From Candidatus Multivorans sp. (GTDB lineage: Bacteria > Acidobacteriota > Thermoanaerobaculia > Multivoradales > Multivoraceae): 64,000 bases of DNA. A program made the translations under genes and the position numbers. Location: assembly GCA_965216125.1 (NCBI GenBank), contig OZ244152.1, positions 2,755,035-2,819,034 on the forward strand. The letters are read 5' to 3'. Of this stretch, positions 1-41,854 are shown piece after piece. Position 1 is the stretch's first letter, and every line of letters starts with the position of its first letter. The notes beneath the pieces were generated by a model. That model saw only the letters and a list, made by a program, of their open reading frames with translations, was not told where the DNA came from and did no database searches.

Positions 1-4
1 GTCA

Positions 5-2656
5 ATGTTTGGAGGGGTGGTCAATCGGTCGGTTCGCGTCTCGGTCTTCGCTTGCCTGGCCTTCCCCTTCGTCCTTGACGCTCAACCGAGCACCTCAGCC
101 GCGGCGCCGGAGGCCCTGACACAGAGACTGCCGCCCTTGAGCGAAGTCGCTTCGCTGGCCGTGCCAGGCATCGATGTCGGGCTGCGTTGGGCAGAGGAAC
201 AGGTACCCGGCGAGCCGTTCCGCTTCGCTTCGTCCTACGCCGTCAGCGTAACGCCGTCGGTGAATGGATCCTGGGTTCCTTCGTCCGGCGAGGGAACGTC
301 CGTATGGCGTTTGCGGGTGTCGGCGCCCGGCTCGCTGTCTCTGAACCTGGGCTTCACTCGCTACGAGATGCCGACCGGCGGGCGGTTGTTCCTCTATACG
401 CCCGACTACGAGTTTGTGATCGGTCCGTATACCGAGGCGGACAACAAGAGCCACGGCCAACTGTGGACGCCGATCGTACCGGGCGACGAACTGGTGATCG
501 AGGTTTCGGTTCCGGCGAGGCTGGCCGGAGACCTTGAGCTTGAGCTCGGTTCCGTCAATCGGGGTTTCCGGGATATTGCCGGTCAGGCGAGTGGGCCGCA
601 GGGATCGTGCAACATCGACGTGGTGTGTTCCGAGGGTGATGCCTGGCGGGACCAGATTCGCAGCGTGGCCCTGATCACGGTGTTGGGGGAAGTCACCTGT
701 TCGGGCGTGCTGGTGAACAACACGGCCTCGGATCTGAAGCCGTACTTCTTGACCGCTTTTCACTGCGCGGGCAGTGCCTTGTCGGCGTCCACCATAGTCG
801 TTCGCTGGAACCACGAGAGCCCATCGTGCGGGGCGCGGTCGGACGAATCGCCGGGGCTCTACCAGTACGGTGCGATCTTCCGGGCCGGGCACCCGGATAG
901 CGATGTCTCGTTGCTTGAACTGAAGAACACGCCGGCTTCAGCCCGCAACGTGCATTGGGCGGGTTGGAGCAGGAGTCACGTGGCGCCTGCGTCGGGTATT
1001 GGGATCCACCATCCCAGCGGCGGTGAGAAGTCCATCTCGTTCGAGAACGATCAGACGACTACGACGGACCAACGATCAGACACACCGGTTGACGGCGCCA
1101 GTTTCATTCGAGTGGCCGACTGGGAGCAGGGCACGGTGGAAGGCGGTTCGTCGGGGTCGCCGCTGTTTGGTCCGGACGGCCTCGTTGTCGGCTTGCTGAG
1201 CACTGGAGGGTCGGGGTGCAGCAGAGACGAGGCGAATTGGTACGGGCGGCTGGCGACGGCCTGGACTGGCGGCGGCACGGCGTCTTCGCGGCTCAGCGAC
1301 TGGTTGGACCCGGGCGGTACGGGTGTGTACAGCCTGGCTGGACGGGACGAGGTGGATTCGACGCCGCCTGCGAATGGAAGCCCGGTGGCGGTGGGCACCC
1401 TGGAGGACCGGACTCTGGCGAGCGGTCCGGTGACTCTGTCGGTGTCGGGCTCGTTCAGTGATCCGGACGATGACGCTCTGACTTACGACGCTTCGTCGTC
1501 GTCGCCGTCGGTCGTGAGCGTGTCGGCATCGGGTTCTGGGGTGACGTTGACGCCTGTGACAGTTGGGTCGGCGACCATCACGGTGACGGCAACTGACGAG
1601 TCAGGCTCGGGCCTGTCGGCGACGCACGAGTTCGTGGCAACGGTGCCCCCACCCCCACCCCCACCGCCACCACCGCCGCCACCCCCACTACCGCCGCCGC
1701 CCCCACTACCGCCGCCGCCGCCACCACCACCACCGCCGCCGCGTCTGGAAGCCAGTCTGGCGGCGCCGTCGACGGTTGAGACGGGAGTACGGGTGGTGTT
1801 CGACGGCAGCGGTTCGGCGAATGCTGAGAGCTACAGTTGGGACTTCGGCGACGGCTCGGTGATCGCGCATCCGAGCACGAAGTCGCGGCCGTCGCACACG
1901 TACCTGGAGCCGGGTTCGTACGTAGTGCGGCTGGAGGTCGCCCGCGGCGGCGCCTGCGGCAAGCAGTTCTGCGAGCACGACGCGGCTACGGCGATGGTGG
2001 AAGTGGCGCCGGGGCGCAGGCCCGCGGCGCGGTTTGACCTGGATGCCGACTGCAGCGGGGAACTGTGCGTCGTGCGCACCGGCGTCGAGGTGACGTTCAG
2101 CGACCGGAGCAGCGGCACGGTGGCGGCGCGGAGTTGGAACTTCGGTGACGGGTTCCCGTCGAGCGCCCGCGACCCCGGGCACTCGTGGTCTTCGCCGGGC
2201 TTCTACCGGGTTGAGCTCGTGGTTTCAGGCCTGGGCGTGGAGTCGACGGCAAGTCGTGACCTCCTGGTCGTGGCGAGTGACCCGGCCGGCGGTTGCGAGC
2301 CGGATGGGGAGACGCTGTGCCTTCAGGACTCGCGGTACGCGGTGGGCGTGGAATGGTGGACCGGTGACGGGCAGAGCGGCAGCGGCAGCGTGGTCCATGC
2401 GGGTACGAACGACTCGGGCCTGTTCCGGTTCTTCAGCCCGGACAACTGGGAGGTGCTGATCAAGGTGCTGGACGGGTGCGCGCTGAATGGTCACGTGTGG
2501 GTGTTCGGCGCCTCGACGACGGACCTGGGCTACGTGATCCGGGTGACGGACACGGTGACCGGTGCGGTCAAGGAGTACCGGAACGAGCCCGGGCGGCCGG
2601 CGCCGGCGATCACGGACGGGAAGGCATTTGCGGGCGGCTGCGCGGTCTTCCAGTAG
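5..2656 (+). CDS. Secreted trypsin-like (S1) serine protease with poly-Pro linker, two PKD-like domains and the shared C-terminal four-Cys domain
   Basis: Signal-peptide-like N-terminus (MFGGVVNRSVRVSVFACLAFPFVLDAQ). S1 catalytic motifs LTAFHCAG (His) and GGSSGSPLF (Ser). About 35 consecutive Pro codons. Two WDFGDG/WNFGDG PKD-type segments. C-terminal ASDPAGGCEPDGETLCLQDSRYAV..NWEVLIKVLDGCALNGHVWVFGASTTDLGY..AITDGKAF block shared with eight other proteins in the window. Confidence 0.8.
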   Translation: MFGGVVNRSVRVSVFACLAFPFVLDAQPSTSAAAPEALTQRLPPLSEVASLAVPGIDVGLRWAEEQVPGEPFRFASSYAVSVTPSVNGSWVPSSGEGTSVWRLRVSAPGSLSLNLGFTRYEMPTGGRLFLYTPDYEFVIGPYTEADNKSHGQLWTPIVPGDELVIEVSVPARLAGDLELELGSVNRGFRDIAGQASGPQGSCNIDVVCSEGDAWRDQIRSVALITVLGEVTCSGVLVNNTASDLKPYFLTAFHCAGSALSASTIVVRWNHESPSCGARSDESPGLYQYGAIFRAGHPDSDVSLLELKNTPASARNVHWAGWSRSHVAPASGIGIHHPSGGEKSISFENDQTTTTDQRSDTPVDGASFIRVADWEQGTVEGGSSGSPLFGPDGLVVGLLSTGGSGCSRDEANWYGRLATAWTGGGTASSRLSDWLDPGGTGVYSLAGRDEVDSTPPANGSPVAVGTLEDRTLASGPVTLSVSGSFSDPDDDALTYDASSSSPSVVSVSASGSGVTLTPVTVGSATITVTATDESGSGLSATHEFVATVPPPPPPPPPPPPPPLPPPPPLPPPPPPPPPPPRLEASLAAPSTVETGVRVVFDGSGSANAESYSWDFGDGSVIAHPSTKSRPSHTYLEPGSYVVRLEVARGGACGKQFCEHDAATAMVEVAPGRRPAARFDLDADCSGELCVVRTGVEVTFSDRSSGTVAARSWNFGDGFPSSARDPGHSWSSPGFYRVELVVSGLGVESTASRDLLVVASDPAGGCEPDGETLCLQDSRYAVGVEWWTGDGQSGSGSVVHAGTNDSGLFRFFSPDNWEVLIKVLDGCALNGHVWVFGASTTDLGYVIRVTDTVTGAVKEYRNEPGRPAPAITDGKAFAGGCAVFQ
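1645..1743 (+). repeat. CCN-rich coding microsatellite-like tract encoding a poly-Pro linker
   Basis: ccc/cca/ccg runs read directly in the sequence. They translate to PPPPPPPPPPPPPPPPLPPPPPLPPPPPPPPPPPP. Confidence 0.75.
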
Positions 2657-2751
2657 CCTGTGGACCGACTGTCGCGCGGTGGATTCTTGATGGAGCCTGG
2701 AGAGATGGGAGACGAGACTGCGGTATTCCGCTTGGTAGTGCGACACTCGTA

Positions 2752-2807: not shown

Positions 2808-3836
2808 ATGAGGACCGCAACTCGCACTGGTCGAAGCTGCATCCCGCGTCAGGCGCGAGCTTGGAGGTTGGCGCTACCGGGCCGGCCGGGCGGGGTCACG
2901 CTGGGCTACCGGGGAGGCCTCATCCTGGTCCTGCTCGGCCTCTGCGTGGCCTTCGGCATGGTCACGGACCACTTCTGGAGCGCCCTGACCTTTCGCACCC
3001 TGGCGAACCAGTTGCCACCCCTGGTGGTCGCCTCGGCAGGCCTGACCCTGGTGCTCATCGCGGGCGGCATCGATCTCTCGGTCGGTTCGGTGCTGGCCCT
3101 GGCGGCGGCCGTGCTGGGCGTCCTGACCGTGGACCATGGGTTCCCCCTGGTGCTGGCGGCTCTTGCTGCTCTCGTTGTCGGCGCCTTGTGCGGCGCGATC
3201 AACGGTGCGCTGGTCGCCCGCTGGTCGATCCCCTCCTTCCTGGTCACCCTCGGCATGCTGGAGATCGCGCGCGGCTCGACCTATCTCGTCACCGCGTCGA
3301 AGACGAGCTACCTGGGCGATCGGGTCGCTGCGCTTGGCGCCAACGTGCCGGTTGTGGGGCTGTCCGTCGCCTTCATCGGCTCGCTCGCCGTGGTCGGAGC
3401 GCTCCAGTTCGTTCTCTCGCGCACCGCCTTCGGTCAGTGGATCTTCGCGGTCGGTGGCAACCTTTCGGCGCTCCACCGCTGCGGCGTCCGCCCGGCGCGG
3501 ATCCAGTTCGCGGTCTTCACGCTTGCGGGGCTGCTGGCGGCGGCCGCCGGACTGTGCCAGGTCGGCTACCTGCAGTCGGCCGATCCGAACGCCGCGATCG
3601 GGATGGAGCTGTCGGCGATCGCCGCGGTGGTCATCGGCGGCACGTCGCTTATGGGCGGCCGCGGGTCGGTGACCGGCACGCTCCTGGGCGTGCTGGTGAT
3701 CGCCGTGCTGCAGACGGGACTCGCCCAAGCCGGCGCCACCGAGCCGACCAAGCGCATCATCACCGGCGTCGCGATCCTGCTGGCGGTGGCGAGCGATGTG
3801 TGGCGGCGGCGCCGGAGCGCGGACGCAGTCTCTTGA
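2808..3836 (+). CDS. ABC transporter permease, RbsC/AraH-like sugar or branched-chain type (orphan)
   Basis: 342 aa, multi-span hydrophobic. Conserved GGIDLSVGS and IGGTSLMGGRGS motifs typical of this permease family. No ATPase or substrate-binding-protein gene is adjacent. Confidence 0.75.
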   Translation: MRTATRTGRSCIPRQARAWRLALPGRPGGVTLGYRGGLILVLLGLCVAFGMVTDHFWSALTFRTLANQLPPLVVASAGLTLVLIAGGIDLSVGSVLALAAAVLGVLTVDHGFPLVLAALAALVVGALCGAINGALVARWSIPSFLVTLGMLEIARGSTYLVTASKTSYLGDRVAALGANVPVVGLSVAFIGSLAVVGALQFVLSRTAFGQWIFAVGGNLSALHRCGVRPARIQFAVFTLAGLLAAAAGLCQVGYLQSADPNAAIGMELSAIAAVVIGGTSLMGGRGSVTGTLLGVLVIAVLQTGLAQAGATEPTKRIITGVAILLAVASDVWRRRRSADAVS

Positions 3837-3913
3837 GGCGAGGCGCCATCCGGGCGCCCGATGACGGCGCTATCCTCGGCCACCGCGACTTCCCATTCAA
3901 TCGAGGAACCGAC

Positions 3914-5122
3914 ATGACGAATCGACCGGCCAGTTTGAAGCTCAGCCTCTCCATTGCGGTCCTGACGGCGGCGACGGCCGCGGCGGCGCAGGAGCGAGCC
4001 ATCGAGTTCCCCGACGTCGACGGCTACCGCACGTTCGCCGTCGACCTGCACACCCACTCCGTCTTCTCGGACGGCATGGTGTGGCCGGTCATCCGCATGC
4101 AGGAGTCCGAGCGGGACGGGCTCACCTTGATGGCGGTCACCGAGCACCTGGAGTACCAGCCGCGCCGGGAGGACATCCCGCACCCGGACCGGAACCGGTC
4201 CTACATCGTCGCCAGTGAGTACGCCGCGGAAGAGGGAACCTCTGTGATCGTGGTCAACGGCGCCGAGGTCACCCGCAGCATGCCGCCGGGCCACGTGAAC
4301 GCCGTGTTCATCACGGATGCGAACGCCCTCCTCGTGGAGATCGGCGAGGTGGACTACATGACTCGGCTTCGCCCGTCCACTGCCGAGGAACAGGAAGCGA
4401 GCGAGCGGGAGGCGCAGCAGGCGATCGAGGCGGCCAACCGGCAGAACGCCTTCGTGTTCTGGAATCACCCGAACTGGCCCCGGCAGCGGCCCGATGGCGT
4501 GGCGAAGCCGACCGACATGCATCGAGGTCTCGTCGCCGACGGGCTGCTCCACGGCATCGAAGTGGCGAACGGCGACTTCTATTCGGCCGAGGCCTTGCAG
4601 ATCGCACTGGACCTCGATCTGGCGATCCTCGGCGTCTCGGACATCCACGGCCTGATCGACTGGGAGTACGACCCGCAAGGCGGCGGGCACCGCACGGTGA
4701 CCCTGGCGTTCGCCGAGGAGCGAAGCGCGGAGTCGATCAAGCAGGCGCTGCACGCGAATCGCACCGTGGCCTGGATGGCCAACTGGCTGATCGGCCGGGA
4801 GGACGTACTGATGCCGCTGGTCGAGGCTTCGCTCCTGCTGACGAAGGTCGAACGCAGCCAGGACGACGAGTTGATCGACATCAGGCTCTCCAACGTGTCG
4901 GACGCTGCCTTCGATCTGCGCGTCACCAGCGGACACCGTTTCAACGGCCCGCCGTCCGTGATGCGGGTCGAACCGCACAGCGACCTCGACCTGGCGATCA
5001 GCGGCGAATCCCGCGCCAGCTTCGAGATGGCCTTCGAGGTGCTGAACGCGATTGTGGCGCCGGAGACGCATCCGACTCTGCGACTGGAGGTGGAGGTAGC
5101 GCCGGCGACCCCGGTCGAATGA
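3914..5122 (+). CDS. Secreted PHP-domain-like metal-dependent phosphoesterase (copy 1 of a tandem pair)
   Basis: The in-frame ATG at 3914 follows the permease stop. The long 2861..5122 ORF 5' part is an overlap artefact. Signal peptide (LSLSIAVLTAATAAAAQ). DLHTHSVFSDG His-x-His PHP-type motif. Confidence 0.7.
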   Translation: MTNRPASLKLSLSIAVLTAATAAAAQERAIEFPDVDGYRTFAVDLHTHSVFSDGMVWPVIRMQESERDGLTLMAVTEHLEYQPRREDIPHPDRNRSYIVASEYAAEEGTSVIVVNGAEVTRSMPPGHVNAVFITDANALLVEIGEVDYMTRLRPSTAEEQEASEREAQQAIEAANRQNAFVFWNHPNWPRQRPDGVAKPTDMHRGLVADGLLHGIEVANGDFYSAEALQIALDLDLAILGVSDIHGLIDWEYDPQGGGHRTVTLAFAEERSAESIKQALHANRTVAWMANWLIGREDVLMPLVEASLLLTKVERSQDDELIDIRLSNVSDAAFDLRVTSGHRFNGPPSVMRVEPHSDLDLAISGESRASFEMAFEVLNAIVAPETHPTLRLEVEVAPATPVE

Positions 5123-7563: not shown

Positions 7564-7669
7564 GGCGGCGGATGGTAGCGGAGTCTCCGCTAGAGTATTG
7601 CGATCGAGAGACAGGGCTCGACCGGTACGGGTCGACGACGACGGCACCCCAGGGGTGCGGGGAGACACC

Positions 7670-9004: not shown

Positions 9005-9005
9005 C

Positions 9006-21364: not shown

Positions 21365-22573
21365 CTAGAAGCGTTGTCCTACGGGCTCGTCGGCGCACTT
21401 GAATGCCGACGTCTCGCTCTTGGTTGCCGCCGTCACATTCTGCTGGTTGCTGTGGGTCCAGCGGTCGTCGTTCGGACCCGTTACCCAGAGGTTGAACTCC
21501 AGAGTGGTGACCGGCGCCACGAAGACCCAGCGGTGGCCGTTGTGGGCGCAGCCGTCGAGCACCTTGACCAGCACCTCAGCGTTGTCCCGGTCGAAGAACC
21601 ACAGGATGCCGGACTGGCCGGATGCCCAAACGCCGGACTTGGCCTGGCCTTCTTCTCCCTCGGGCGTGCGGTAGCACATGCTGACTTCGTAGCCGCCGTC
21701 GAACTGGAGCACCGTCGTCGTTGGAGTACAGCCGGGGGTTGGAGGCGGATCCGGGTCCGGATCCGGGTCCGGGTCGGGCGTGCTTCCGCCGTGGTCCACC
21801 CCCAGGCGGATGAAGTACGCCGTAGCGACCGTTTCGGCGTTCCATGAACCCCATCTGCCTCCTGATGAGGATCGGGCCCGCCAGAAGTTCCTGGTGCCGC
21901 CTGGTCCGTTGCGATCCTCGGCGAAGACCTTGCCGCTTGAGTTCGTCCACCGGACGCTCAGCCATGTATCGCCGCTGGCAAGTCGCTGCCGGGTGATGTC
22001 GCCTCTGTCGACCGATACGCAGGTCCCTCTGCCTCTGGTCAGGCCGGAAGCCGTCGCCGAGTACGATGCCAACTGACTTCCCGGTCGCCCACCGGAGTTG
22101 CGGTAGAACGTCAGGACGAAAGACACGCTGGCGTTGTTGTCGTCTTCTTCTCGGCCAAAACACACCGTCCCAGAAGTGACGGTACCGGCACGAGGCAATC
22201 GGAATCGCTGTGCGTACTCCTGTTCATGAGCATTCGTGATGCGAGTGAACGACTCCGGTGTACCATCGTCGTACTTGTACTCAGTTACGGCGGCAGAAGC
22301 GACCCTGGTGGGTTCGGACGCCGCCGCATCGACCAGCGAGATGTCGTCGGCCCCGTAGACGACCACGTCACCGACGGCCTCCTTGACGAAGACCTGCTCG
22401 CCGCGGACCTGGAGCGGCTCTTCCCAGACCAACAGATCCCGACCCTGCTGGGCGGCCAGAGGCGCCGAAACAGCCAAGGCCGCTAGCACAGACAGAATCG
22501 CTATGCAGGTTGGCCGCCCGAGGCTGGATTTCGATCGGCTTCGCTTTCTTTCTTTTGTTCCTGGGGCACGCAT
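21365..22573 (-). CDS. Secreted protein: unknown N-terminal domain, (PD)n linker and the shared C-terminal four-Cys domain
   Basis: Start placed at the internal Met preceding signal peptide CIAILSVLAALAVSAPLAA. PDPDPDPDPDPPPTP linker. C-terminal CTPTTTVLQFDGGYEVSMCY..AEVLVKVLDGCAHNGHRWVFVAPVT..AFKC. Only 10 nt from the next gene. Confidence 0.7.
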   Translation of the reverse strand: MRAPGTKERKRSRSKSSLGRPTCIAILSVLAALAVSAPLAAQQGRDLLVWEEPLQVRGEQVFVKEAVGDVVVYGADDISLVDAAASEPTRVASAAVTEYKYDDGTPESFTRITNAHEQEYAQRFRLPRAGTVTSGTVCFGREEDDNNASVSFVLTFYRNSGGRPGSQLASYSATASGLTRGRGTCVSVDRGDITRQRLASGDTWLSVRWTNSSGKVFAEDRNGPGGTRNFWRARSSSGGRWGSWNAETVATAYFIRLGVDHGGSTPDPDPDPDPDPPPTPGCTPTTTVLQFDGGYEVSMCYRTPEGEEGQAKSGVWASGQSGILWFFDRDNAEVLVKVLDGCAHNGHRWVFVAPVTTLEFNLWVTGPNDDRWTHSNQQNVTAATKSETSAFKCADEPVGQRF

Positions 22574-22669
22574 GGTCGCTCTCACTCCGATTTGCGGGAA
22601 GTTGTTGGCTGGTTGTGTGGACACTGCCCGTCGTTCAGCGACGCCATGTTCGAGCAGCGCCAAGGCACA

Positions 22670-32300: not shown

Positions 32301-35300
32301 CCGGCGAAGTGCCGGGTGGACAAGTGAGCGCACGGGGGAGTCGACGCTGGCGGGGACGTTCATGGTCGACGCGGTCCCTTGCCGCTTGCAAGTGGCCGGC
32401 CGTGGCGCTGGCGGTGTTGGTGGTTTCGCTTCCGGCTTTCGCCCGGGCGCAGGTGAGGCCCGAGGGCGAGGTTCTGGCCGGTGTGCCTGCGGATGCCGTC
32501 AGTCGCTCCGTACTCGATCCCGTATCTCTTTCGGTGATCGACGTGGCGGTGGTCTACACCCCGACCGCTCGGGACTTCAAGGGCGGGACCTCCGCGATCA
32601 AGGACGAGATCGACCTCATGGTCGCGGAGGTGAACGGCGCCTATGCGGCGAGCGGCGTGCACCAGCGCATCGTTCTCGTTGCGGCGCAGGAGGTGGCCTA
32701 CACGGAAGTCGGCCCGTTCGACATCGTGCGGCTCGAGCGGAAGACGGACGGCCACATGGACGGCGTGCATGCGATGCGCGACGAGGTCGAGGCCGATGCC
32801 GTCGTGCTTCTCGCAAAATGGGCGGAGAGCAGTGTGTCCGGCATCGCGCCGTTGATGTCCACTGTGTCGAACGACTTCGAGAAGCGGGCCTTTGCCGCCG
32901 TGAACATCGAGTCTTCGACCTTGACCATGGCCCACGAACTCGGACACATCATGGGCCTGCTTCACGATCGCTACCTGGAGTGCGACGCGAGTGCATGCGA
33001 TCCGGCGGCGTATCCGTACTCATACGGGTACGTGAACCAGGAGGCCTTTGAAGATGGCGCCCCGGAGTCGGCCCGTTGGCGGACGATCATGTCGTACGAC
33101 AACCAGTGCGGCGCCAACGGTGGGACCTGTACCCTGTTGGCCCGTTTCTCGAATCCGCATCAGCTCTACCCAGGCTATGGCGGCGATCCGCTCGGCGTGC
33201 CTGGCTCCGAGGTGACGAACGAGGTCGAGGGTCCGACGGATGCGGCAAGAAGCCTCAACCAGACGCGCGAGACGGTGGCAGGTTTCCGCCGCTTCGACGC
33301 CGCCTCGGTGTCGTTCGCCGCGGCGGACTACGAGGCAACAGAGGGCGGAGACGACGCTCTGGTGACCGTCAGACTGGACGTGGCGCCCGGCCGGCCGCTC
33401 TTCATTCCGCTGGTCGCCGTAGCCGCAGGCGGCGCCATGCAGGCCGACTATGCCGGCTTGCCGGAGATGGTGTCGTTCGCCGCGGGCGAGACCGAGCAGA
33501 CCTTCACTGTTCAGGCCGTGGACGACGCTGCCGACGATGACGGCGAGACGATCACGATCAGTCTGGGAGGCCAGGTGCCGGCAGGCAGCCCGGCTACGAC
33601 GACGGTGACGCTGGTTGACGACGATACGGTGCCTGGGGCGCCCCAGGTGCATGCGGTGACCATCGTGTCGAACCCTGGGCCGGACTCGACCTACGCGGAG
33701 GGCGAGACGATCGAAGTAGAGGTGGCGTTCACGAAGACCGTGACCGTCACGGGCACGCCCCGGATCGAGCTGACGGTGGGCGAAGAGGAGGAGTACGCGG
33801 AGTATGGGCGCGAAGCCGGAGAGGTCCTGACCTTCGCCTACGTCGTCTCCAGCGGCGACAGCGCAGCTTCCGGGATCAGCGTTGCCGGGGGAAGCCTGGA
33901 CCTGAACGGCGGGACGATCAAGGACGGCTCCGATCAGGACGCTGCCCTGAGCCATGGGGCGATTGCGATTCAGGCCGACCACAAGGTCGATGGGGTCGGG
34001 CCGACGTTGGAGAGCGCCTCCGTCGACATTGTGGAACTCACCCTCACCTACTCGGAAGATCTCGACTCGACCAGGTACTCGGGACCGGCGGGGTCGGCCT
34101 TCGAGGTGACGGCCGCTTCGTCTACCGTGACGGTGGGGGACGTGGACGTTCGCGGGCGGACGGTGGTGCTGAGGCTCGACCTGGCAGTCCTCAACGGGCA
34201 GACGGTTACCCTGAGTTACACGCCCGGGACATCGCCGCTGTCGGACGCTGTCGGGAATGCCGCGTCCGTCTTCTCTGGCGAGAACGTCACGAACGTCACG
34301 GTTCCCATCGTCTTCGATCAGGATCTCGACGGGCTGATCGAGATCAGCAGCCTGCAACAGCTCGATGCCGTGCGCTTCGATGCGGAGGGCGACGGTGCGC
34401 CGACAGCCTTGGGAGCTTCGGAGTATCTGGCCGCTTTCCCCGATGCGGGTACGCGCTTGGCCTGTGGCGGAAGGGGCTGCGGGGGGTACGAACTCAAGGC
34501 GGATCTGGACTTCGACACCAACGGCAACGGGCAGTTCGATGCCGGTGACGATTTCTGGAACGGCGGCGCCGGCTGGACCCCCGCGGCGGCCGCCCTCGAC
34601 GAGTGGTTCACGGCGACGTTCGACGGCAATGGCCACGCCATTCGCAACCTGACCATCGACTCGAGCTCCGAGTATGTGGGCCTGTTCGGTGTCGTTGGTC
34701 CGTCGAGTGCAATCCGGGACCTCGCGCTGACCGACGTCGACGTTTCTTCCTCAGGTCGCGGTGCAACCGGTGGGCTGGTCGGACACTCCAGGGCAGAAAT
34801 CACCCGCGTCTACGTAACCGGGTCGGTGGTGGGCGAGGACAATGTCGGCGGCCTCGTCGGAACGTTCGTTCGAGGCCAGGTGCAGGGCAGCTACGCGACC
34901 TGCATCGTTGCGGGCGGTGATCATGTTGGCGGCTTGGCCGGGTTCGCCTCGGGCAGGATCAGCGATAGCTATGCAGCCGGGTCGGTTTCTGGTGTGAACA
35001 GTGTCGGAGGCCTGGTTGGGAAGGCTCACGCCGCTTCCATCACCGCCAGCTACGCGATCGGGTTCGTGTCGGGTGAGACCGACGTTGGCGGTCTGGTCGG
35101 CGCCGGCTATTCCGGTCGGATCGAGAACAGCTACGCCACCGGCCGCGTTTCGGGCGTGCAGGGTGCCGGGGGGCTGCTCGGCGCGCGCTTCTTCGAGCGC
35201 GAGCCCGTCATCGCGGACAGCTACTGGGATGTCACGGCGTCGGGGCATCAGAGCGGCGACTATGGGGAGGGCCTGACGTCGACTGCGCTTAAGGCGCCCA

Positions 35301-38300
35301 CGACGAATAGCGGCGTCCTTGGAAACTGGACGGGCCAGTGGCGGTTCGGCGCCGCGACGGAGTACCCGGTTCTCGCGTTCGACCTGGATGGGAATGGCGA
35401 CGCCACCTGGGAGGAGTTCGGCTATCAGCTCCGCGCCGGTCCCGTTCTCACGAGGACGGTCCGGCCCGCCGAGGTGGAACTGAGTTGGACCGCGGTGGAC
35501 GCCAGCCATTGGAATCCCGTGCCGGACGTCAGCTACAACGTCTACCGTGACCACGGTGAGAGTGTCGAGCTGATCGCTACGGACCTGAGTGGTTTGTCGT
35601 ACCTCGACGACGCCCTGGTCGCCCGCGCCAGGCACAGCTACCAGGTGGCGGCGCTGGTGAACGGATACGAAGCTGCGCGTAGCGGGATCGTGGCGTCGAA
35701 CGCGCCATCCACAGGCGGTCCTGCCATCACCGGCACACCGCTGGTCGGAGAGACGCTGACCGCGTCGACGGCAGGCATCGACGACGGCAACGGTCTTCTC
35801 AATGCGTCTTTCTCCTTCCAGTGGCTGTACACGCAGGGCGGAGCTGAAGTGGCCATCTCAGGAGCGACGGGCGTCCAGTACGTGATCCAACCGGCGGATG
35901 TGGGCAGGACGTTGCAGGTCCGGGTGACGTTCACCGATGACTCCGGTTACGAAGGGGAGCTCGTGAGCCCGGGCGTGATGGCCGTGATGGTCACGGCAAC
36001 ACTCAGCGAGGCCGAAGTCGCGGAGACGGGAGGAACTACGTACGTGAGGCTGAGCACCGGCGGAGCGTCCCTGCCGAACGACTTGACGGTCGCTCTCCAG
36101 TTGGGCGGGACGGCGACCGAGGGCGAGGACTACCGGATCGACTCGCATAGCCTGACGCTCCTGGCGGGGACTTCCTGGACGACGACAACGATTACGGCCG
36201 AGGACGACAGGATCGACGACGACGGGGAGACAGTCCTGATCGTGGCGGTTCTTGGCGGCCGGCCTTTGGGGACGATCACGTTGACGATCGTTGACGACGA
36301 TCGGCGGGGAGTTGCGGTCTCGGACTCCGCCCTTTCGGTGCGCGAGGGAGGGTCGGCGAGCTACACGGTCGTTCTGAACTCCGAGCCGACGGCGGAGGTC
36401 GAGGTCACGGTGCGGCTGGATCGAACAGGAACCGATGTCTCCCTCGACAAGACGGCGCTGACCTTCGCGCCGGCCGATTGGAACGTTCCGCAGGAGATCC
36501 AAGTCAGCGCAGCGGGAGACTCGGACACGGCGACGGACGCTCCGGTCACTGTTCTCCACCGGGTGAGTGGCGGGGACTACGGCTCCCTGAACGTGCCGGA
36601 CCTGCGGGTGACCGTCGTGGAGACGGGCGCTCCCAACCTGTCGGTCGACGATCGGAGGGTGGCGGAGGGCGGTGGCGCGATCGTCTTCGACGTCACACTG
36701 AGCCTGGCGAGCAGTGAGGAAGTGACCGTCGACTACGCGACTTCGGACGGTTCGGGAGTGGATGCTTCCGTGGCGGGTTCGGACTACACGGCGACGGATG
36801 GCACGGTCATCTTCGCCGCTGGAACGACGGCGAGCCAGCCGATTCGCGTTGTGATTCTGGACGACACTGTGGACGAGGCCGAGGCCGAGACGTTCGTGCT
36901 GACTCTGAGCAACGCGGTCAACGCTACCTTGGCCGGCGGTGGGCAGGTGTTGCAGGTGACGGGAACGATCGATGATGACGATGTTCCGCGGGTCGTGGTG
37001 TCGTTTGGGTCGGAGAGCTATGAGGCCGTCGAAGGCGCATCGGTCGAGATCGAGGTGAATCTGGACAGGGATCCGGAACGATTGCTGACGATTCCGCTGG
37101 TCCAGGAGCGTCGTGGCGGGGCGGCGGAGGGCGACTACCTGGGAGTCCCTGCGAACGTGGTCTTCGGCAACGAGGTCACTTCGAGGACGTTCGAGTTCAC
37201 GGCCGTGGAGGACGCGGACGACGATGACGGCGAAGCCGTCGTGCTTCGTTTCGGATCGCTCCCGGACGCGGTCACGGCGGGTGGTGACACGATCTTGGCC
37301 ATCCTGGACAACGACGGCGGTAGCGGTGGCGGAACCGGTGGCGGCGGAACCGGTGGTGGCGGAACCGGTGGTGGCGGCGGGTCTCCGCCTCCGCCTGACC
37401 CCGATCCGCCCCCGCCGCCACCACCACCACCCACGGTTTCGCTCGCGGCGGCGGAGGCTCTGGAGAGCGCTGGCGCGGTGGTGTTCGATGTCCGCCTGAG
37501 TGCGTCCAGCGGCGCCGCGGTGACGGTCGACTACGTCACCGCGGACGGCGCTGGCGCCAGCGGAGCGAGAGCAGGTTCGGACTACACGGCGACGCAGGGC
37601 ACGCTGACCTTCCCCGCCGGTTCGTCAACGCGGCAGATTCGCGTCTTGGTGACGGACGACGCGGCGGACGAAGGCGATGCGGAGACGTTCACGTTGACGC
37701 TCAGCAGTCCGACGAACGCGTCGCTGGCCGGCGGCGGTTCGGTGCTGCGGGTGACGGGGACGATTCGCGACGACGACTCCGGTCCTCCCATGGCGGCCTT
37801 CGCGGTGACGGGCGCGAGCTGCGCCGCCGACCTGTGCCGGACGGTCACCGGGGAGGCGGTGGGGTTCGTGGACACGAGTGCCGGGACCGTGCGCTCGCGG
37901 CGCTGGGAGTTCGGTGACGGAACGGCGTCGCGGTCCCGGAGGCCGGAGCATTCCTGGTCGTCGCCGGGGTTCTACGAGGTCACGCTGAGGGTGAGCGACG
38001 GGACGACCGAGTCGACCGCGTCACGGAAGTTCCTGGTCGAGGCGAGCGATCCGGCTGGCTCCTGCGTGGCGGATGAAGAGACGCTCTGCCTGCAGGACTC
38101 GCGCTATGCGGTGACCGTGGCCTGGTGGACCGGTGCCGGCGAAAGTGGCGCCGGCAGCGTGGTCCACGCGGGAACGAACGACTCGGGTCTGTTCACGTTC
38201 TTCAGCCGTGAGAACTGGGAGGTCCTGATCAAGGTGCTGGACGGCTGCGCACTCAACGGGCATGTGTGGGTGTACGGCGCGTCGACGACGGACCTGGGCT

Positions 38301-38437
38301 ACTCGATCCGGGTGGCCGACACGGTGACCGGGACCGTGAAGGAGTACCGGAACGAGCCGGGCCTGCCGGCGCCCGCGATCACGGACGCGACCGCGTTTGC
38401 CGAGGGCTGCGCGTTGCAGGTCCGTACTTCACCGTAG
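32297..38437 (+). CDS. Giant (about 2040 aa) secreted metzincin/Calx-beta/GLUG/PKD protein with the C-terminal four-Cys domain (paralog 2; start codon uncertain)
   Basis: Overlaps the upstream stop (GTGA). Signal peptide WPAVALAVLVVSLPAFARAQ. HELGHIMGLLHD. Same domain order as paralog 1. The last 340 aa or so are nearly identical to paralog 1. Confidence 0.8.
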   Translation: MTGEVPGGQVSARGSRRWRGRSWSTRSLAACKWPAVALAVLVVSLPAFARAQVRPEGEVLAGVPADAVSRSVLDPVSLSVIDVAVVYTPTARDFKGGTSAIKDEIDLMVAEVNGAYAASGVHQRIVLVAAQEVAYTEVGPFDIVRLERKTDGHMDGVHAMRDEVEADAVVLLAKWAESSVSGIAPLMSTVSNDFEKRAFAAVNIESSTLTMAHELGHIMGLLHDRYLECDASACDPAAYPYSYGYVNQEAFEDGAPESARWRTIMSYDNQCGANGGTCTLLARFSNPHQLYPGYGGDPLGVPGSEVTNEVEGPTDAARSLNQTRETVAGFRRFDAASVSFAAADYEATEGGDDALVTVRLDVAPGRPLFIPLVAVAAGGAMQADYAGLPEMVSFAAGETEQTFTVQAVDDAADDDGETITISLGGQVPAGSPATTTVTLVDDDTVPGAPQVHAVTIVSNPGPDSTYAEGETIEVEVAFTKTVTVTGTPRIELTVGEEEEYAEYGREAGEVLTFAYVVSSGDSAASGISVAGGSLDLNGGTIKDGSDQDAALSHGAIAIQADHKVDGVGPTLESASVDIVELTLTYSEDLDSTRYSGPAGSAFEVTAASSTVTVGDVDVRGRTVVLRLDLAVLNGQTVTLSYTPGTSPLSDAVGNAASVFSGENVTNVTVPIVFDQDLDGLIEISSLQQLDAVRFDAEGDGAPTALGASEYLAAFPDAGTRLACGGRGCGGYELKADLDFDTNGNGQFDAGDDFWNGGAGWTPAAAALDEWFTATFDGNGHAIRNLTIDSSSEYVGLFGVVGPSSAIRDLALTDVDVSSSGRGATGGLVGHSRAEITRVYVTGSVVGEDNVGGLVGTFVRGQVQGSYATCIVAGGDHVGGLAGFASGRISDSYAAGSVSGVNSVGGLVGKAHAASITASYAIGFVSGETDVGGLVGAGYSGRIENSYATGRVSGVQGAGGLLGARFFEREPVIADSYWDVTASGHQSGDYGEGLTSTALKAPTTNSGVLGNWTGQWRFGAATEYPVLAFDLDGNGDATWEEFGYQLRAGPVLTRTVRPAEVELSWTAVDASHWNPVPDVSYNVYRDHGESVELIATDLSGLSYLDDALVARARHSYQVAALVNGYEAARSGIVASNAPSTGGPAITGTPLVGETLTASTAGIDDGNGLLNASFSFQWLYTQGGAEVAISGATGVQYVIQPADVGRTLQVRVTFTDDSGYEGELVSPGVMAVMVTATLSEAEVAETGGTTYVRLSTGGASLPNDLTVALQLGGTATEGEDYRIDSHSLTLLAGTSWTTTTITAEDDRIDDDGETVLIVAVLGGRPLGTITLTIVDDDRRGVAVSDSALSVREGGSASYTVVLNSEPTAEVEVTVRLDRTGTDVSLDKTALTFAPADWNVPQEIQVSAAGDSDTATDAPVTVLHRVSGGDYGSLNVPDLRVTVVETGAPNLSVDDRRVAEGGGAIVFDVTLSLASSEEVTVDYATSDGSGVDASVAGSDYTATDGTVIFAAGTTASQPIRVVILDDTVDEAEAETFVLTLSNAVNATLAGGGQVLQVTGTIDDDDVPRVVVSFGSESYEAVEGASVEIEVNLDRDPERLLTIPLVQERRGGAAEGDYLGVPANVVFGNEVTSRTFEFTAVEDADDDDGEAVVLRFGSLPDAVTAGGDTILAILDNDGGSGGGTGGGGTGGGGTGGGGGSPPPPDPDPPPPPPPPPTVSLAAAEALESAGAVVFDVRLSASSGAAVTVDYVTADGAGASGARAGSDYTATQGTLTFPAGSSTRQIRVLVTDDAADEGDAETFTLTLSSPTNASLAGGGSVLRVTGTIRDDDSGPPMAAFAVTGASCAADLCRTVTGEAVGFVDTSAGTVRSRRWEFGDGTASRSRRPEHSWSSPGFYEVTLRVSDGTTESTASRKFLVEASDPAGSCVADEETLCLQDSRYAVTVAWWTGAGESGAGSVVHAGTNDSGLFTFFSRENWEVLIKVLDGCALNGHVWVYGASTTDLGYSIRVADTVTGTVKEYRNEPGLPAPAITDATAFAEGCALQVRTSP
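37381..38395 (+). repeat. Near-identical segment of about 1 kb (copy B), counterpart of 31201..32215
   Basis: As above. It is preceded by three copies of GGAACCGGTGG(C/T)GGC, against two copies in paralog 1. Confidence 0.8.
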
Positions 38438-38491: not shown

Positions 38492-41400
38492 ATGCTCATT
38501 CGGCCTTTCAATCTCGGCAGTCAATTGCATCTGAGCGATACACCAACCCGGGCGGGGGCACGGCCGGTCGTGGCGCTGGTTTTCCTGACGGCTTGCCTGA
38601 GCTACGGGCCTTCCGCGGTCGCCCAATCCGTTCCGGACCACGACCGGCGCCCGCAGCCGCGGTTCGTCGGCCAGGCCGCCAGCGTCAGCAGCATCGCGAT
38701 CACGTCTGATCCCGGATCGGACGGCTACTACACGCGTAGCGACGTGATCGAGGTCACGGTGACCTTCGATGAGACCGTGACGGTGAACTTCAACGACGGG
38801 ACGCCGTCTCTGGCCTTGACGGTGGGCGACGAGACGCGTTTGGCGGAGTATGACCGGGGTTCCGGTACAACGGCGTTGGTGTTCGGGCATCGGTTGAGAT
38901 TCGCCTCCGCTTCCGCGGATGTCACGCATCTCTTGACCGGCAATCTCGGCTTGAGCGGAACGGCGGGCGACGAGGACACCGACGGCGTGAGCGTCGAGGG
39001 CGGCTCGATTGCGCTGAACGGAGGCACGATCAAGAACACGGCGAACGAGGACGCCGATCTCGCGTACTCCAGCCTGATGGCCCAGTCCGGTCACAGAGTC
39101 GACTCGGTCAGCCCCGGTCTGCTTCTCAATCCCGTGGTGAACGGCGCGACACTGAAGCTCGTCTACCGCGAAGAGTTCGACACCTCCATATCGCCGGCTG
39201 CAAGCGTCTTCACGGTGACGGTCGGAGGCAATGGCCGCACGGTGTCGGATGTCTCGGTGGACGGGGCTGCGGTGAGTCTGACGCTCGACTCCGCTGTGAA
39301 CCACGGAGACGGTGTATCGATCGCCGTGGCCTACTCGACGTCGCTGAGGGATCTGGCAGGCAACGCGGCGTCAGTGATCAACGGCACGTCGGTGACAAAT
39401 GAAACGCCTGCGGCGCCGGCGCCGGCTCCTGACCCACTGGGACCGAGTGTCACCGGGATTGCCCTCGGATCGACGCCGGGACCCGACGGGTTCTACGTGG
39501 GCGGCGATGACATCGATGTCACAGTGACGTTTGACGACAGCGTGACGGTGGACACAACGAACGGTGAGCCGTCCCTCCGCCTGATGGTCGGACAACTGCC
39601 CAGGCATGCCGTCTACAAGGAAGGCTCAGGCTCGGCGACGTTGACGTTTCGTTACACGGTAGCGGCGGGTTACCCGCCCCTGGCCGCGATCTTCCTGAAC
39701 AATCACTCGAACCGGTCATTGACCGTGGGTGACGAGGATGGAGACGGCCTGAGCATCGAGGCGGGCCGGATCGCGTTGAACGGCGCCACGATTCAGAACG
39801 CGACGAACAACAACGCCGACCTGGCCCACTCAGAGGTTCTGGCGCAGTCCGGCCACAAGGTGGACGGTGTCGGTCCGACGATGCGGGGCCGCTCGCACCT
39901 CAGCGGCGAAACGTTGACGATGACCTTCCTCGAAGTCCTCGACGAGTCCTCGATCCCGGATGCGGCTGACTTTTCGGTCGACGGTACGCGGGTGGATGAC
40001 GTTCGAATCGTCACCGAGGTCGACGTGGGCGGCGCCGTCGTCACGTTGACGCTCGACACGCGGGTTGAGCACGACGACCGCGTATGGCTCAACTACGTAC
40101 CGGGCGCGACTCCGATTCGGGATCACCTCGGCAACGAGGCGCTTGAGGTAGGAGCCTCCTTCGTGGAGAACTACACCCCGCCTCCTCCTCCTCCGATCAT
40201 TGACCCGGACGCCGCGAACGTCGAGATGCTGACCCTCGCTTCGACGCCCGGGAGTGACGAGACCTATGCGGGGGGCGACGCGCTCGACGTCACCCTGGCG
40301 TTCGACCGGGACGTGACCATGGACACGACGAACGGCACGCCATCGATTTTGCTTTCGGTGGGCTCTCGTCCCCGGGAGGCCTTCTACACCGGCGGTTCGG
40401 GTTCGTCGACGCTGACCTTCAGCTACACGGTCGCCGCGGGCGCGGATGCGTTCTTCGTGACGATCCTCCGTTTGCTCGGCCGCCCGGCGCCGCCGATAGG
40501 CGATGAAGACGAAGACGGTCTGAGCGTCGAGGCGGGCGTGATCGCGCTCAATGGCGGTGTGATCCGGGACAGCACGAACCGGGCTGTCAACGTCCCGCAC
40601 CCGGAGTTGGCCACCCTCTCGGACCACAAGGTGGACGGGATCATGCCGTACCTGCGGGCTGGTGGCTCGGTCGACGGCGCAACGCTAAGCGTAGAGTTCA
40701 GCGAGGCCCTGGATCCAGCCGCCCGGGACGCGGACGGCTTTGTGGTCGAGATCGACGGCGGTGAGCGGTGCATCTCGGCCACCGCGGTCGATATCAGCGG
40801 CGCGGACGTGACATTGACGCTTGCCGCGGCGGTGGGGCCGGGTGAGCAGGTCGCGGTGCGCTACACGCCCGGCGCGAGTCCGCTTCGCGACCTCGTCGGC
40901 AACGCCGGGTTCAACGACCAGACGGGGGTGACGAATCAGACGACGACCGGTTCGGGCGGCAACGGCGTCGCTTGCGTGAGTCCACCGCCTCCGCCGCCAC
41001 CGCCTCCACCGCCGCCACCGCCACCGCCACCACCGCCTCCACCTCCACCACCCCCGCCTCCGCCACCACCACCTCCACCGCCTCCCGACGATGGCGCCGA
41101 TGGCGACGCCGGCGATGAGGACGGCGATGAGGACGACGGTGACGATGGCGATGGCGATGGCGACGATGGCGATGGCGACGATGGCGATGAGGACGGCGAC
41201 GATGGCGTGCCGCCGCCGAGTGGTCCGCCCGAAGCTGCCTTCACGGTGAGCGCAGAGTGCGCCGACGAACTGTGCCGTACTCGGACAGGCGTCGCGGTGA
41301 CGTTCGCCGACGTGAGTACCGGCATCGTCCGGTCCCGCATGTGGGAGTTCGGAGACGGCAAGCGGTCCCGGAACGGGGGCCTGGAGTACGCGTGGTCGGA

Positions 41401-41854
41401 GCCCGGCTTCTACAAGGTCACGTTGACCGTGAGTGACGGCCTCTTGGTGTCGAAGCTGTCCCGGACCTTCCTGGTCGAGGCGAGCGAGCCGGCGGGCACG
41501 TGTGAACCCGATGCGAAGACGTTGTGCCTGCAGGACTCGCGCTACGCGGCACGGGTCTCGTGGTGGACGTTAGACGGGCGGGCGGGTCCAGGAATCGTGG
41601 TCCGCGAGGGGACCAACGACTCGGGCCTGTTCTGGTTCTTCAACCCGGACAACTGGGAGGTTCTCATCAAGGTGCTGGACGGCTGTGCGCTGAACGGCAA
41701 CGTCTGGGTGTTCGGCGCCTCGACGATGGACTTGGGGTCTGTGATCGAAGTGACCGACACCGTGACGGGGGCCGTGAAGGAGTACAGCAACGAGCCGGGT
41801 CGGCCGGCGCCGGCGATCACCGACGCGCAGGCGTTCCAAGCGTGCGCCCGCTGA
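38492..41854 (+). CDS. Large secreted protein with five Ig-like repeat domains of about 130 aa, a poly-Pro linker of about 35 residues, an acidic (D/G/E) linker, a PKD domain and the shared C-terminal four-Cys domain
   Basis: Signal peptide VVALVFLTACLSYGPSAVAQ. Repeated ..LNGGTI(K/Q)N..N.DADLA.S...AQSGHKVDG modules, also present in the two giants. P-tract then DDGADGDAGDEDGDEDDGDDGDGDGDDGDGDDGDEDGDDG. C-terminal ASEPAGTCEPDAKTLCLQDSRYAA..NWEVLIKVLDGC. Confidence 0.75.
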   Translation: MLIRPFNLGSQLHLSDTPTRAGARPVVALVFLTACLSYGPSAVAQSVPDHDRRPQPRFVGQAASVSSIAITSDPGSDGYYTRSDVIEVTVTFDETVTVNFNDGTPSLALTVGDETRLAEYDRGSGTTALVFGHRLRFASASADVTHLLTGNLGLSGTAGDEDTDGVSVEGGSIALNGGTIKNTANEDADLAYSSLMAQSGHRVDSVSPGLLLNPVVNGATLKLVYREEFDTSISPAASVFTVTVGGNGRTVSDVSVDGAAVSLTLDSAVNHGDGVSIAVAYSTSLRDLAGNAASVINGTSVTNETPAAPAPAPDPLGPSVTGIALGSTPGPDGFYVGGDDIDVTVTFDDSVTVDTTNGEPSLRLMVGQLPRHAVYKEGSGSATLTFRYTVAAGYPPLAAIFLNNHSNRSLTVGDEDGDGLSIEAGRIALNGATIQNATNNNADLAHSEVLAQSGHKVDGVGPTMRGRSHLSGETLTMTFLEVLDESSIPDAADFSVDGTRVDDVRIVTEVDVGGAVVTLTLDTRVEHDDRVWLNYVPGATPIRDHLGNEALEVGASFVENYTPPPPPPIIDPDAANVEMLTLASTPGSDETYAGGDALDVTLAFDRDVTMDTTNGTPSILLSVGSRPREAFYTGGSGSSTLTFSYTVAAGADAFFVTILRLLGRPAPPIGDEDEDGLSVEAGVIALNGGVIRDSTNRAVNVPHPELATLSDHKVDGIMPYLRAGGSVDGATLSVEFSEALDPAARDADGFVVEIDGGERCISATAVDISGADVTLTLAAAVGPGEQVAVRYTPGASPLRDLVGNAGFNDQTGVTNQTTTGSGGNGVACVSPPPPPPPPPPPPPPPPPPPPPPPPPPPPPPPPPPPDDGADGDAGDEDGDEDDGDDGDGDGDDGDGDDGDEDGDDGVPPPSGPPEAAFTVSAECADELCRTRTGVAVTFADVSTGIVRSRMWEFGDGKRSRNGGLEYAWSEPGFYKVTLTVSDGLLVSKLSRTFLVEASEPAGTCEPDAKTLCLQDSRYAARVSWWTLDGRAGPGIVVREGTNDSGLFWFFNPDNWEVLIKVLDGCALNGNVWVFGASTMDLGSVIEVTDTVTGAVKEYSNEPGRPAPAITDAQAFQACAR
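40983..41216 (+). repeat. Low-complexity coding DNA: (CCN)n poly-Pro tract followed by a (GAYGGC)n Asp/Gly tract
   Basis: Read directly in the sequence. Slippage-prone tracts inside gene 38492..41854. Confidence 0.75.

Follow-up and report, generated by a model that had tools for sequence, protein, structure and literature searches.

An unassigned all-beta domain on eight secreted proteins of a Candidatus Multivorans locus, a possible extracellular binding or tethering module

Why should secreted proteins as different as a protease, a phosphatase, metzincins and a leucine-rich repeat (LRR) protein, encoded along one stretch of a bacterial chromosome, share a small domain? The window analyzed here (the whole stretch of 64,000 nucleotides) raises this question. 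When its six-frame translation is searched with phmmer, using one subfamily A or one subfamily B query, the same domain of about 118 residues is found on eight secreted proteins. Subfamily A comprises five ORFs, all on the plus strand, and subfamily B three, all on the minus strand. Matches within one subfamily have E values of 1e-48 to 1e-89, those between A and B of 1e-13 to 1e-17, and either query recovers the identical eight ORFs and nothing else. A broad HMM (the A2 profile), built from 73 diverse members and run on the window by hmmsearch, yields no ninth copy in the six frames even at E<=10. The first-pass annotation had spoken of nine proteins, yet its own list also comes to eight; the homologous block of about 115-120 aa lies where it had been placed, and the mutual matches bear out its division into two related subfamilies. 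The copies are as follows (iE values are those of the A2 profile).

2288..2644, plus strand: domain copy 1, subfamily A (score 176, iE 7e-54)
11169..11522, plus strand: domain copy 2, subfamily A (iE 2e-52)
31872..32228, plus strand: domain copy 3, subfamily A (iE 8e-53)
38057..38413, plus strand: domain copy 4, subfamily A (iE 5e-52)
41495..41848, plus strand: domain copy 5, subfamily A (iE 9e-52)
15774..16118, minus strand: domain copy 6, subfamily B (iE 1e-43)
21389..21733, minus strand: domain copy 7, subfamily B (iE 1e-43)
20893..21243, minus strand: domain copy 8, subfamily B (iE 3e-42), N-terminal, residues 46-162 of the reading frame

The proteins that carry these copies all (8/8) begin with a signal-peptide-like N-terminus, in line with the secreted nature proposed for them earlier, and Pfam matches agree with the proposed cargo types.

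5..2656, plus strand: secreted S1 (trypsin-like) protease with a signal-peptide-like N-terminus (Pfam Trypsin_2/Trypsin, PKD_4)
1646..1741, plus strand: polyproline spacer of 32 aa before the PKD+domain cassette of 5..2656
9006..11531, plus strand: secreted LRR protein (Pfam LRR_8, E 2e-35; PKD_4)
15768..17696, minus strand: secreted PhoA-like alkaline phosphatase (Pfam Alk_phosphatase, E 8e-102) with a C-terminal B domain
16125-16184, minus strand: (PD)n linker of the PhoA-like protein 15768..17696
17893..21354, minus strand: 1153-aa protein with signal peptide, N-terminal B domain, CARDB, Big_2, cadherin and fn3
21365..22663, minus strand: secreted protein with a (PD)n linker and a C-terminal B domain, its N-terminal part without an assigned family
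25716..32300, plus strand: M12/reprolysin-like metzincin of 2194 aa (Pfam Reprolysin/M12, SWM_repeat, five Calx-beta, PKD)
32297..38437, plus strand: paralogous metzincin of 2046 aa (Reprolysin/M12, SWM_repeat, Glug, Calx-beta, PKD, C-terminal A domain)
38492..41854, plus strand: SWM_repeat/Big_5 protein of 1120 aa (Pfam SWM_repeat, Big_5, PKD) with a C-terminal A domain

In the protease, the order is catalytic domain, Big_9, polyproline, two PKD and the A domain at the C-terminus; the LRR protein is built alike, with its LRR region, a Big_9-like domain, polyproline, two PKD and a C-terminal A domain. The first metzincin continues for 22 aa beyond its C-terminal A domain. The two neighboring metzincins are 94% identical over the last 313 aa, and both genes are missing at syntenic loci L001 and L002. 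The SWM_repeat/Big_5 protein has 35 prolines in a row (the tract measures 37 aa counting two Asp), followed by an acidic D/G/E tract and PKD. Among the B proteins, the exact sequence of the PhoA-like enzyme has no match on record. The 21365..22663 protein reaches the choice-of-anchor R model (NF041539) at a sub-threshold 19.6 bits (E 7e-4; membership needs at least 30 bits), and a search for relatives of its cargo part with other known anchors yielded 15 homologues, all of them close orthologues from the same clade. In 17893..21354, the domain stands directly behind the signal peptide and ahead of CARDB, and a long C-terminal part is without an assigned domain.

The region had been described as a 42-kb island, a term that is misleading. 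The GC content is uniform across the window (63-71%); the domain genes are interspersed with housekeeping genes, which encode a BCAA permease, a GFO/Idh/MocA oxidoreductase, an IcmF-like mutase, an acyl-CoA synthetase and a 2-hydroxyacid dehydrogenase; and related Candidatus Multivorans (Thermoanaerobaculia) genomes show synteny with the region. On these three grounds, we reject a horizontally acquired island.

Subfamily A proteins have polyproline tracts followed by PKD, and two B proteins have (PD)n linkers, the polyproline or (PD)n spacers being 15-37 residues long. The earlier statement that the domain always follows a linker thus holds for these proteins and fails for the N-terminal copy in 17893..21354. 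Between unrelated cargos of the window, the PKD+domain cassette (roughly 208 aa) is 61-71% identical; diverse cargo, spacers and this shuffled cassette support the view of a modular accessory domain.

The domain might be an accessory of another kind, a stabilizing cap, intramolecular chaperone or pro-domain that serves the folding of large secreted multidomain proteins without a ligand, and that might be trimmed after secretion like the PPC domains of secreted peptidases. Its terminal position, its compact disulfide-stabilized fold, the frequent peptidase partners and the centering of conservation on core strands are compatible with such a role. However, the domain also occurs on non-enzymes (LRR, cadherin, fn3 and SWM proteins), in tandem and alone, and PPC (PF04151) gives no match. 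In addition, long flexible or rigid spacers separate cargo and domain, so that the domain is unlikely to chaperone the fold of its cargo. A folding accessory is quite improbable.

What kind of domain is it? Its cysteines follow a nearly fixed plan. The four-cysteine spacing said to be common to A and B stands for three of the cysteines but not for the second, which aligns to profile column 12 in A but to column 23 in B, the two positions being mutually exclusive. Across 465 copies, the pattern is C1C2C3C4 in 399 and C1C2bC3C4 in 47; C1 and C2 are lost jointly in 12 and C3 and C4 jointly in 2, and single losses occur in 5 only. Structure prediction, which the first-pass annotation had proposed, gives a confident all-beta model: AF2 with a 73-sequence alignment reaches pLDDT 95.7 and pTM 0.89, and replaces a run on seven window sequences alone (pLDDT 60). 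The model, the cysteine pattern and the lack of a TM tail suggest an extracytoplasmic fold of about ten strands with two disulfides, in a domain whose varied positions and stand-alone copies point to autonomous folding. One of the disulfides would staple the N-terminal hairpin, and the second probably links the turn at the C-terminus with the invariant LDGC turn. Of the invariant residues (S44, F49, F50, N54, E56, K60, D63, G64, C65, N68, W72, T79 and D111), most are located in the central strands, and they may define just the fold.

The description of the domain as unassigned withstands comparison with sequence and structure collections. Pfam-A (2025) contains no match for whole window proteins, isolated window copies or the 73 diverse members; the window copies give sub-threshold noise alone in NCBIfam (2026); and PDB sequence profiles offer nothing below E 0.1. 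No confident named-domain match thus emerges from Pfam, NCBIfam or PDB. Foldseek of the predicted fold finds no PDB neighbor (best E 0.19), and fold comparison with BFVD gives a best E of 0.07. Profiles and fold comparison show no similarity to CBM, lectin, SLH, dockerin or PPC families, and named CBM and lectin families (ricin B, C-type lectin, discoidin/CBM32 and others in Pfam) give neither a profile nor a clear fold match. Por_Secre_tail (PF18962 / TIGR04183) is absent at E<=10 from the window copies and at E<=1 from the 73 members, and the bacterial collagen-binding or PPC profile (PF04151) matches neither set. Dockerin and cohesin profiles and the CTERM sorting models of NCBIfam and Pfam do not match the domain. 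The NF058629 model (PA_0111/PP_0108 redox-active disulfide protein family) weakly matches 6 of the 73 members (best E 0.0046), a result not repeated in 20 members tested singly.

Beyond this genome, too, the domain is abundant. The family amounts to 9,761 clusters at 50% identity with E<=1e-3 (8,446 with E<=1e-10), and source records name its members merely "hypothetical" or "PKD domain-containing". In species-representative genomes the matches exceed 511, and the best 80 all come from Acidobacteriota; sponge-associated members of this phylum show a strong expansion of the family, and a single 5.06-Mb genome holds at least 26 distinct copies. The enzymes that carry it include S1, M12, M10, M14, M28 and M64 peptidases, alkaline phosphatase, sulfatase, arylsulfotransferase, PL14 lyase and lactonase, and the other cargo includes LRR, cadherin, fn3, Calx-beta and ricin domains. 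Such cargo is uniformly extracellular, but its diversity exceeds what a substrate-specific role would allow.

Does the domain direct export? It could be a sorting or secretion tag, read by a dedicated outer-membrane translocation or surface-attachment machinery of these Acidobacteriota and possibly removed or covalently attached afterwards, as a functional analogue of the T9SS C-terminal domain. Of 122 Multivorans-clade copies, 119 lie at the extreme C-terminus, which is the expectation for a sorting tag and speaks against tethering; among the top 150 representatives, 116 are C-terminal. Most proteins end 1-4 residues past the last cysteine, without a TM tail. Copies occur by the dozen per genome, and one domain, at 61-94% identity, sits on unrelated cargo inside one genome; a conserved domain on such paralogues also fits recognition by a single machine. 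The order of cargo, PKD and C-terminal beta domain resembles that of T9SS substrates, and sponge-symbiont MAGs have been reported to be without classical secretion systems for eukaryote-like proteins (PMC8163846). Against this stand copies directly behind the signal peptide (17893..21354 in the window, 24 of 150 representatives N-terminal), internal copies (10/150) and tandem arrays of 2-4 copies among the same representatives. Thirteen proteins, 148-178 aa long, contain nothing but a signal peptide and one domain, without cargo; they are independent genes on long contigs, and the genes around them are unrelated between loci. The first-pass annotation had suggested anchoring, ligand binding or a secretion-associated role; these N-terminal, internal, tandem and stand-alone copies disfavor a strictly C-terminal secretion tag. 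Clustering of flanking ORFs reveals no conserved neighbor or processing enzyme, no family being present in more than 8 of 71 loci, and the Por_Secre_tail and CTERM models fail to match. Overall, a sorting tag is unlikely, and less likely than a binding or tethering module.

The same neighborhoods bear on a protein-protein assembly module, dockerin-like or oligomeric, that would join secreted proteins to a scaffold or to each other at the cell surface. A single conserved module on many cargos per genome, placed at either terminus behind spacers, recalls cellulosomal dockerins, and two scaffolds could explain two co-resident subfamilies. However, the 71 loci offer no cohesin-like candidate partner, dockerin and cohesin profiles are silent, and stand-alone copies are hard to account for. 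Assembly is very improbable.

The reading we favor, with about an even chance of being right, is that the domain is an autonomous, non-catalytic extracellular module through which enzymes and adhesins are bound or tethered to a target that they share. Besides the C-terminal bias in the Multivorans clade, the lack of similarity to CBM, lectin, SLH, dockerin or PPC families and the mostly central placement of the invariant residues speak against this reading. The protein would be exported by Sec and the domain then folded oxidatively. Positioned terminally, usually at the C-terminus, and set off by a rigid spacer of polyproline or (PD)n, often with PKD, the domain would keep its enzyme or adhesin on a single polymeric target shared by all. 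This target could belong to the producer itself, as a glycan or matrix component of its envelope or EPS, or be the extracellular matrix of the host (sponge). Tandem copies would raise avidity, and the target probably varies between subfamilies A, B and C.

Nearly ten thousand clusters of this family, at 50% identity, are without a model in Pfam-A or NCBIfam, and a family HMM would better annotate thousands of proteins whose shared domain has a high-confidence predicted fold with no PDB neighbor. The protein classes to which the domain is joined in sponge-associated Acidobacteriota (LRR, cadherin, fn3, Calx-beta, metzincins, sulfatases and lyases) are believed to act in host interaction, and how such host-interface proteins arrive and remain there is an acknowledged gap (PMC8163846). 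The domain provides a simple handle on the surface and secreted proteome of uncultured symbionts and, being small and expressible, is a candidate for structure determination and ligand screening. A more speculative idea, which we regard as distinctly unlikely, is that the domain is a new fold serving as recognition or attachment tag of an undescribed export or surface-display pathway in Thermoanaerobaculia-type Acidobacteriota, with A, B and C denoting different destinations. If true, sponge symbionts would rely on this pathway to display their eukaryote-like proteins (LRR, cadherin and fn3), along with matrix-degrading enzymes, to the host.

Several known systems resemble the domain in part. 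CTERM-type tails (PEP-CTERM/exosortase, GlyGly-CTERM and MYXO-CTERM) are C-terminal, occur on many secreted proteins per genome and are common in Acidobacteriota. They consist of a short motif, a TM helix and a basic tail, whereas the present domain is a globular unit of 118 aa, and its proteins have no hydrophobic segment past the last cysteine. The T9SS C-terminal sorting domain (PF18962 / TIGR04183) is a small all-beta domain that forms the very C-terminus of many secreted enzymes and adhesins unrelated to one another, often behind PKD or fn3, with dozens of copies in a genome. The likeness lies in the C-terminal beta domain, varied cargo, PKD and many copies. In contrast to this strictly C-terminal, single-copy arrangement, the present domain takes other positions too, has two conserved disulfides and belongs to Acidobacteriota rather than Bacteroidota. 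In the clostridial collagenases ColG and ColH, the enzyme is followed by PKD and then by one or two tandem C-terminal copies of a beta domain of about 115 aa, the collagen-binding domain (PPC superfamily, PF04151), which tethers the enzyme to substrate or matrix. Here, too, the window cargo includes metzincins and the family cargo M10 matrixins, in a sponge-associated lineage; the differences are the disulfides, in place of the Ca-dependent N-terminal linker of the collagen-binding domain, and a cargo far broader than peptidases. Finally, CBMs, SLH domains, dockerins and LysM share with the domain a modular build, placement at either terminus, tandem copies, Pro-rich linkers and shuffling among unrelated cargos.

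Eight secreted proteins encoded in the window carry the same unnamed domain, a block of about 115–120 residues that occurs in two sequence types. Translation of the long ORFs places it at the C-terminus of the five plus-strand proteins, and its position in all eight is as follows.

5..2656, plus strand: type A, domain C-terminal, within 2285–2653
9006..11531, plus strand: type A, domain C-terminal
25716..32300, plus strand: type A, domain C-terminal
32297..38437, plus strand: type A, domain C-terminal
38492..41854, plus strand: type A, domain C-terminal
15768..17696, minus strand: type B, domain C-terminal, within 15771–16121
21365..22663, minus strand: type B, domain C-terminal
17893..21354, minus strand: type B, domain N-terminal, directly behind the signal peptide

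A phmmer search of the six-frame translation of the window with one copy of either type returns these same eight ORFs and none besides, and a broad profile built from 73 diverse members detects no ninth copy in the window even at E ≤ 10. The first-pass annotation had counted nine such proteins; both searches give eight, which is also the number on its own list. The homology that it proposed is real and far beyond chance, with phmmer E-values of 1e-48 to 1e-89 within type A or B and of 1e-13 to 1e-17 between the types. The conserved four-cysteine spacing is correct for three cysteines, which align in all copies. In type A the second follows the first by 8 residues (C-x7-C), in type B by 18; across 563 non-redundant copies a cysteine at one of these positions (profile columns 12 and 23) excludes a cysteine at the other.

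The domain was also said always to follow a linker. Seven copies do stand behind a spacer; the eighth is the N-terminal one, which a CARDB domain follows. In type A, the spacer consists of a polyproline tract of 15–37 residues and then one or two PKD domains, and in two type B proteins a (PD)n tract lies ahead of the domain. The spacer of ORF 38492..41854 is unusually long and of a rigid-plus-acidic kind: it has 35 consecutive prolines (37 residues with two Asp; region 40982–41200), and a tract of about 40 Asp, Gly and Glu residues between the proline run and the PKD-plus-domain cassette.

All eight proteins have signal-peptide-like N-termini. Pfam bears out the cargo assigned earlier, namely an S1 (trypsin-like) protease, an LRR protein, an alkaline phosphatase and metzincins. 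Both M12/reprolysin giants carry SWM_repeat and Calx-beta domains, and the remaining cargo comprises an SWM_repeat/Big_5 protein and a CARDB-cadherin-fn3 protein. The cargo part of 21365–22663 (residues ~142–277) matches choice-of-anchor R at 19.6 bits, below the cut-off of 30, and its sole detectable homologues are 15 close orthologues from the same clade. The PKD-plus-domain cassette, about 208 residues long, is 61–71% identical across unrelated cargos of the window, and the S1 protease has 437 residues in common with the LRR protein. Such sharing between unrelated cargos is domain shuffling.

The view that the domain is unassigned holds. No Pfam-A model covers the domain region in the eight window proteins; the isolated domains have no Pfam-A match at E ≤ 1​0, and the 73 diverse members none at E ≤ 1 save scattered noise. 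The window copies match nothing in NCBIfam. Weak matches to NF058629 (PA_0111/PP_0108 redox-active disulfide protein) occur in 6 of the 73 members, with a best E of 0.0046, and in none of 20 members re-examined singly. Searches of PDB sequences with domain profiles came up empty below E 0.1, and relatives are named in databases only as 'hypothetical protein' or 'PKD domain-containing protein'. By profile and fold, the domain belongs neither to the T9SS CTDs, the CTERM tails or PPC/CBD, nor to any named lectin or CBM family. It is a large, unannotated new family that behaves like the modular targeting domains yet is a member of none.

AlphaFold2 gave an unconvincing model from the window sequences only (pLDDT 60) and a confident one with the 73 diverse members (pLDDT 95.7, pTM 0.89). 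The predicted structure has about 10 beta strands, a short helical turn behind the invariant LDGC motif and a C-terminal helical turn. In the full PDB, Foldseek found nothing below E 0.19, with TM ≤ 0.32 among the listed matches, and a search of BFVD found nothing below E 0.07. The predicted fold is therefore probably undescribed, a suspicion that is well founded and short of demonstration. All four cysteines are present in 446 of 465 complete copies (399 with the A/C-type second cysteine, 47 with the B-type); 12 copies have lost the first and second jointly, 2 the third and fourth, and 5 a single cysteine. As judged from this pattern, a C1–C2 disulfide is well supported and a C3–C4 disulfide tentatively so. 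In the numbering of the 123-residue query these pairs would be C4–C12 and C65–C119; N54, E56, K60, D63, N68, T79 and D111 are polar residues that do not vary in the family.

The domain genes had been described as an island, which they do not form. Housekeeping genes are in fact interleaved with them (a branched-chain amino-acid permease, a GFO/Idh/MocA oxidoreductase, an IcmF-like B12 mutase, an acyl-CoA synthetase and a 2-hydroxyacid dehydrogenase), G+C is 63–71% over the entire window, and the window aligns with Candidatus Multivorans sp. chromosomes (Thermoanaerobaculia, Acidobacteriota) at 82–95% nucleotide identity. In loci from two of these genomes (L001 and L002), the SWM gene comes directly after the dehydrogenase gene, and at this syntenic position exactly the two metzincin genes are missing; the pair at 25.7–38.4 kb is thus an insertion or deletion. 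In another such locus (L017) the SWM gene is present three times in tandem. Such differences among close relatives point to a fast turnover of domain-bearing genes by gain and loss. Domain genes cluster generally across the Multivorans clade: 36 of 71 loci of 12 kb hold at least two and 12 at least three.

Several other genes of the window may be mentioned here. Adjoining paralogous ORFs at ~3900–5122 and 5119–6246 have very similar C-terminal halves, and the latter encodes an Ig-like DUF5001 domain as well as a signal peptide. The long ORF 2861..5122 probably starts in reality near 3.9 kb, since it overlaps the real branched-chain amino-acid permease gene (2808..3836) in a different frame. 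A secreted-looking protein of 1173 residues (45360–48881) has at least six CarboxypepD_reg domains and lacks the domain studied here. A SNF2/RapA-like helicase (55210..59142, 1310 residues), an ORF of 397 residues (59159..60352) and a Rad50/SbcC-like ATPase (60356..63784, 1142 residues) all share one orientation and may form a repair or anti-phage defence cluster (55210–63784).

When 1.84 billion cluster representatives were searched with a profile of the domain, 9,761 proteins matched at E ≤ 1e-3; the stricter limits of 1e-10 and 1e-30 left 8,446 and 3,194. In genomes sampled at one per species, more than 511 matches were confirmed, and the best 80 of them are all Acidobacteriota, labelled as Ca. 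Multivorans, Thermoanaerobaculia, 'Holophagales' and 'Acidobacteria' MAGs. The bin names of these MAGs (SB06xx, COS1) resemble those of sponge metagenome series. Going by the named minority of clusters, the family is apparently restricted to Acidobacteriota. One chromosome of 5.06 Mb holds at least 26 distinct copies, counted from selected loci alone. Also common in metagenomes is type C (CLN..RF.VEV.W.DF ... FATC), a third sequence type that the window lacks.

Among the best 150 representatives, the domain is C-terminal in 116, N-terminal in 24 and internal in 10; 145 have two tandem copies and 5 have four, in a ranking that favours multi-copy proteins. Proteins with four copies, internal positions included, are encoded at 6811–10998 of a related locus (L033) and found as family members P0121–P0124. 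In the Multivorans clade the domain occupies the extreme C-terminus in 119 of 122 ORFs, and its last cysteine usually lies 1–4 residues before the protein end. Thirteen proteins of 148–178 residues have nothing but a signal peptide and one domain; both cases that were checked are genes in their own right (4.5-Mb contig; three separate assemblies). The domain is probably extracytoplasmic, disulfide-bonded and autonomously folding.

Pfam families in 48 ORFs of the Multivorans clade
PKD: 41 of 48
Calx-beta: 15 of 48
fn3: 13 of 48
SWM_repeat: 8 of 48
Peptidase_M14: 7 of 48
Arylsulfotransferase: 3 of 48
Sulfatase: 2 of 48
Matrixin: 2 of 48
Trypsin: 2 of 48
PL14 lyase: 1 of 48
FG-GAP: 1 of 48
Cadherin: 1 of 48
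LRR: 1 of 48

The wider family adds lactonase, M28 and M64 peptidases, ricin, laminin-G and beta-propellers. The domain has stayed similar across unrelated cargos, and its amplification reaches dozens of copies in a genome. With proteases, a phosphatase, sulfatases and pure adhesins all among the cargo, a shared place is a more likely common denominator than a shared substrate. We give an even chance to the reading that the domain is a non-catalytic targeting module holding its cargo at such a common place, which could be the host matrix or else the envelope or EPS of the symbiont itself. The main rival is that the domain serves as a dedicated tag for sorting or secretion, as the T9SS CTD does. 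The extreme C-terminal bias and the conservation of the domain within a genome favour this rival, and sponge-symbiont MAGs are reported to have no classical secretion systems for their eukaryote-like proteins (PMC8163846); N-terminal, internal, tandem and cargo-less copies argue against it, as does the lack of any recurrent neighbouring gene around the domain genes in 71 loci, and we regard it as unlikely. A folding or pro-domain role seems more doubtful, and a dockerin-like role in assembly is the least probable of these.

New domains of unknown function turn up regularly; this family is unusually large and clean among unnamed families and strongly tied to a host-associated lineage. It offers a direct experimental handle on the display of host-interaction proteins by sponge symbionts. 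Its occurrence at either end, in tandem or alone, its long spacers, its likeness and copy number across unrelated cargos, and a very broad cargo of extracellular enzymes and adhesion-type repeats are together the signature of non-catalytic targeting modules, among them CBMs, SLH domains, dockerins and the collagen-binding domains of clostridial collagenases. Clostridial collagenases are built as an enzyme followed by PKD and one or two collagen-binding domains (enzyme-PKD-CBD(x1-2)), and this layout is the nearest architectural parallel to the proteins described here.
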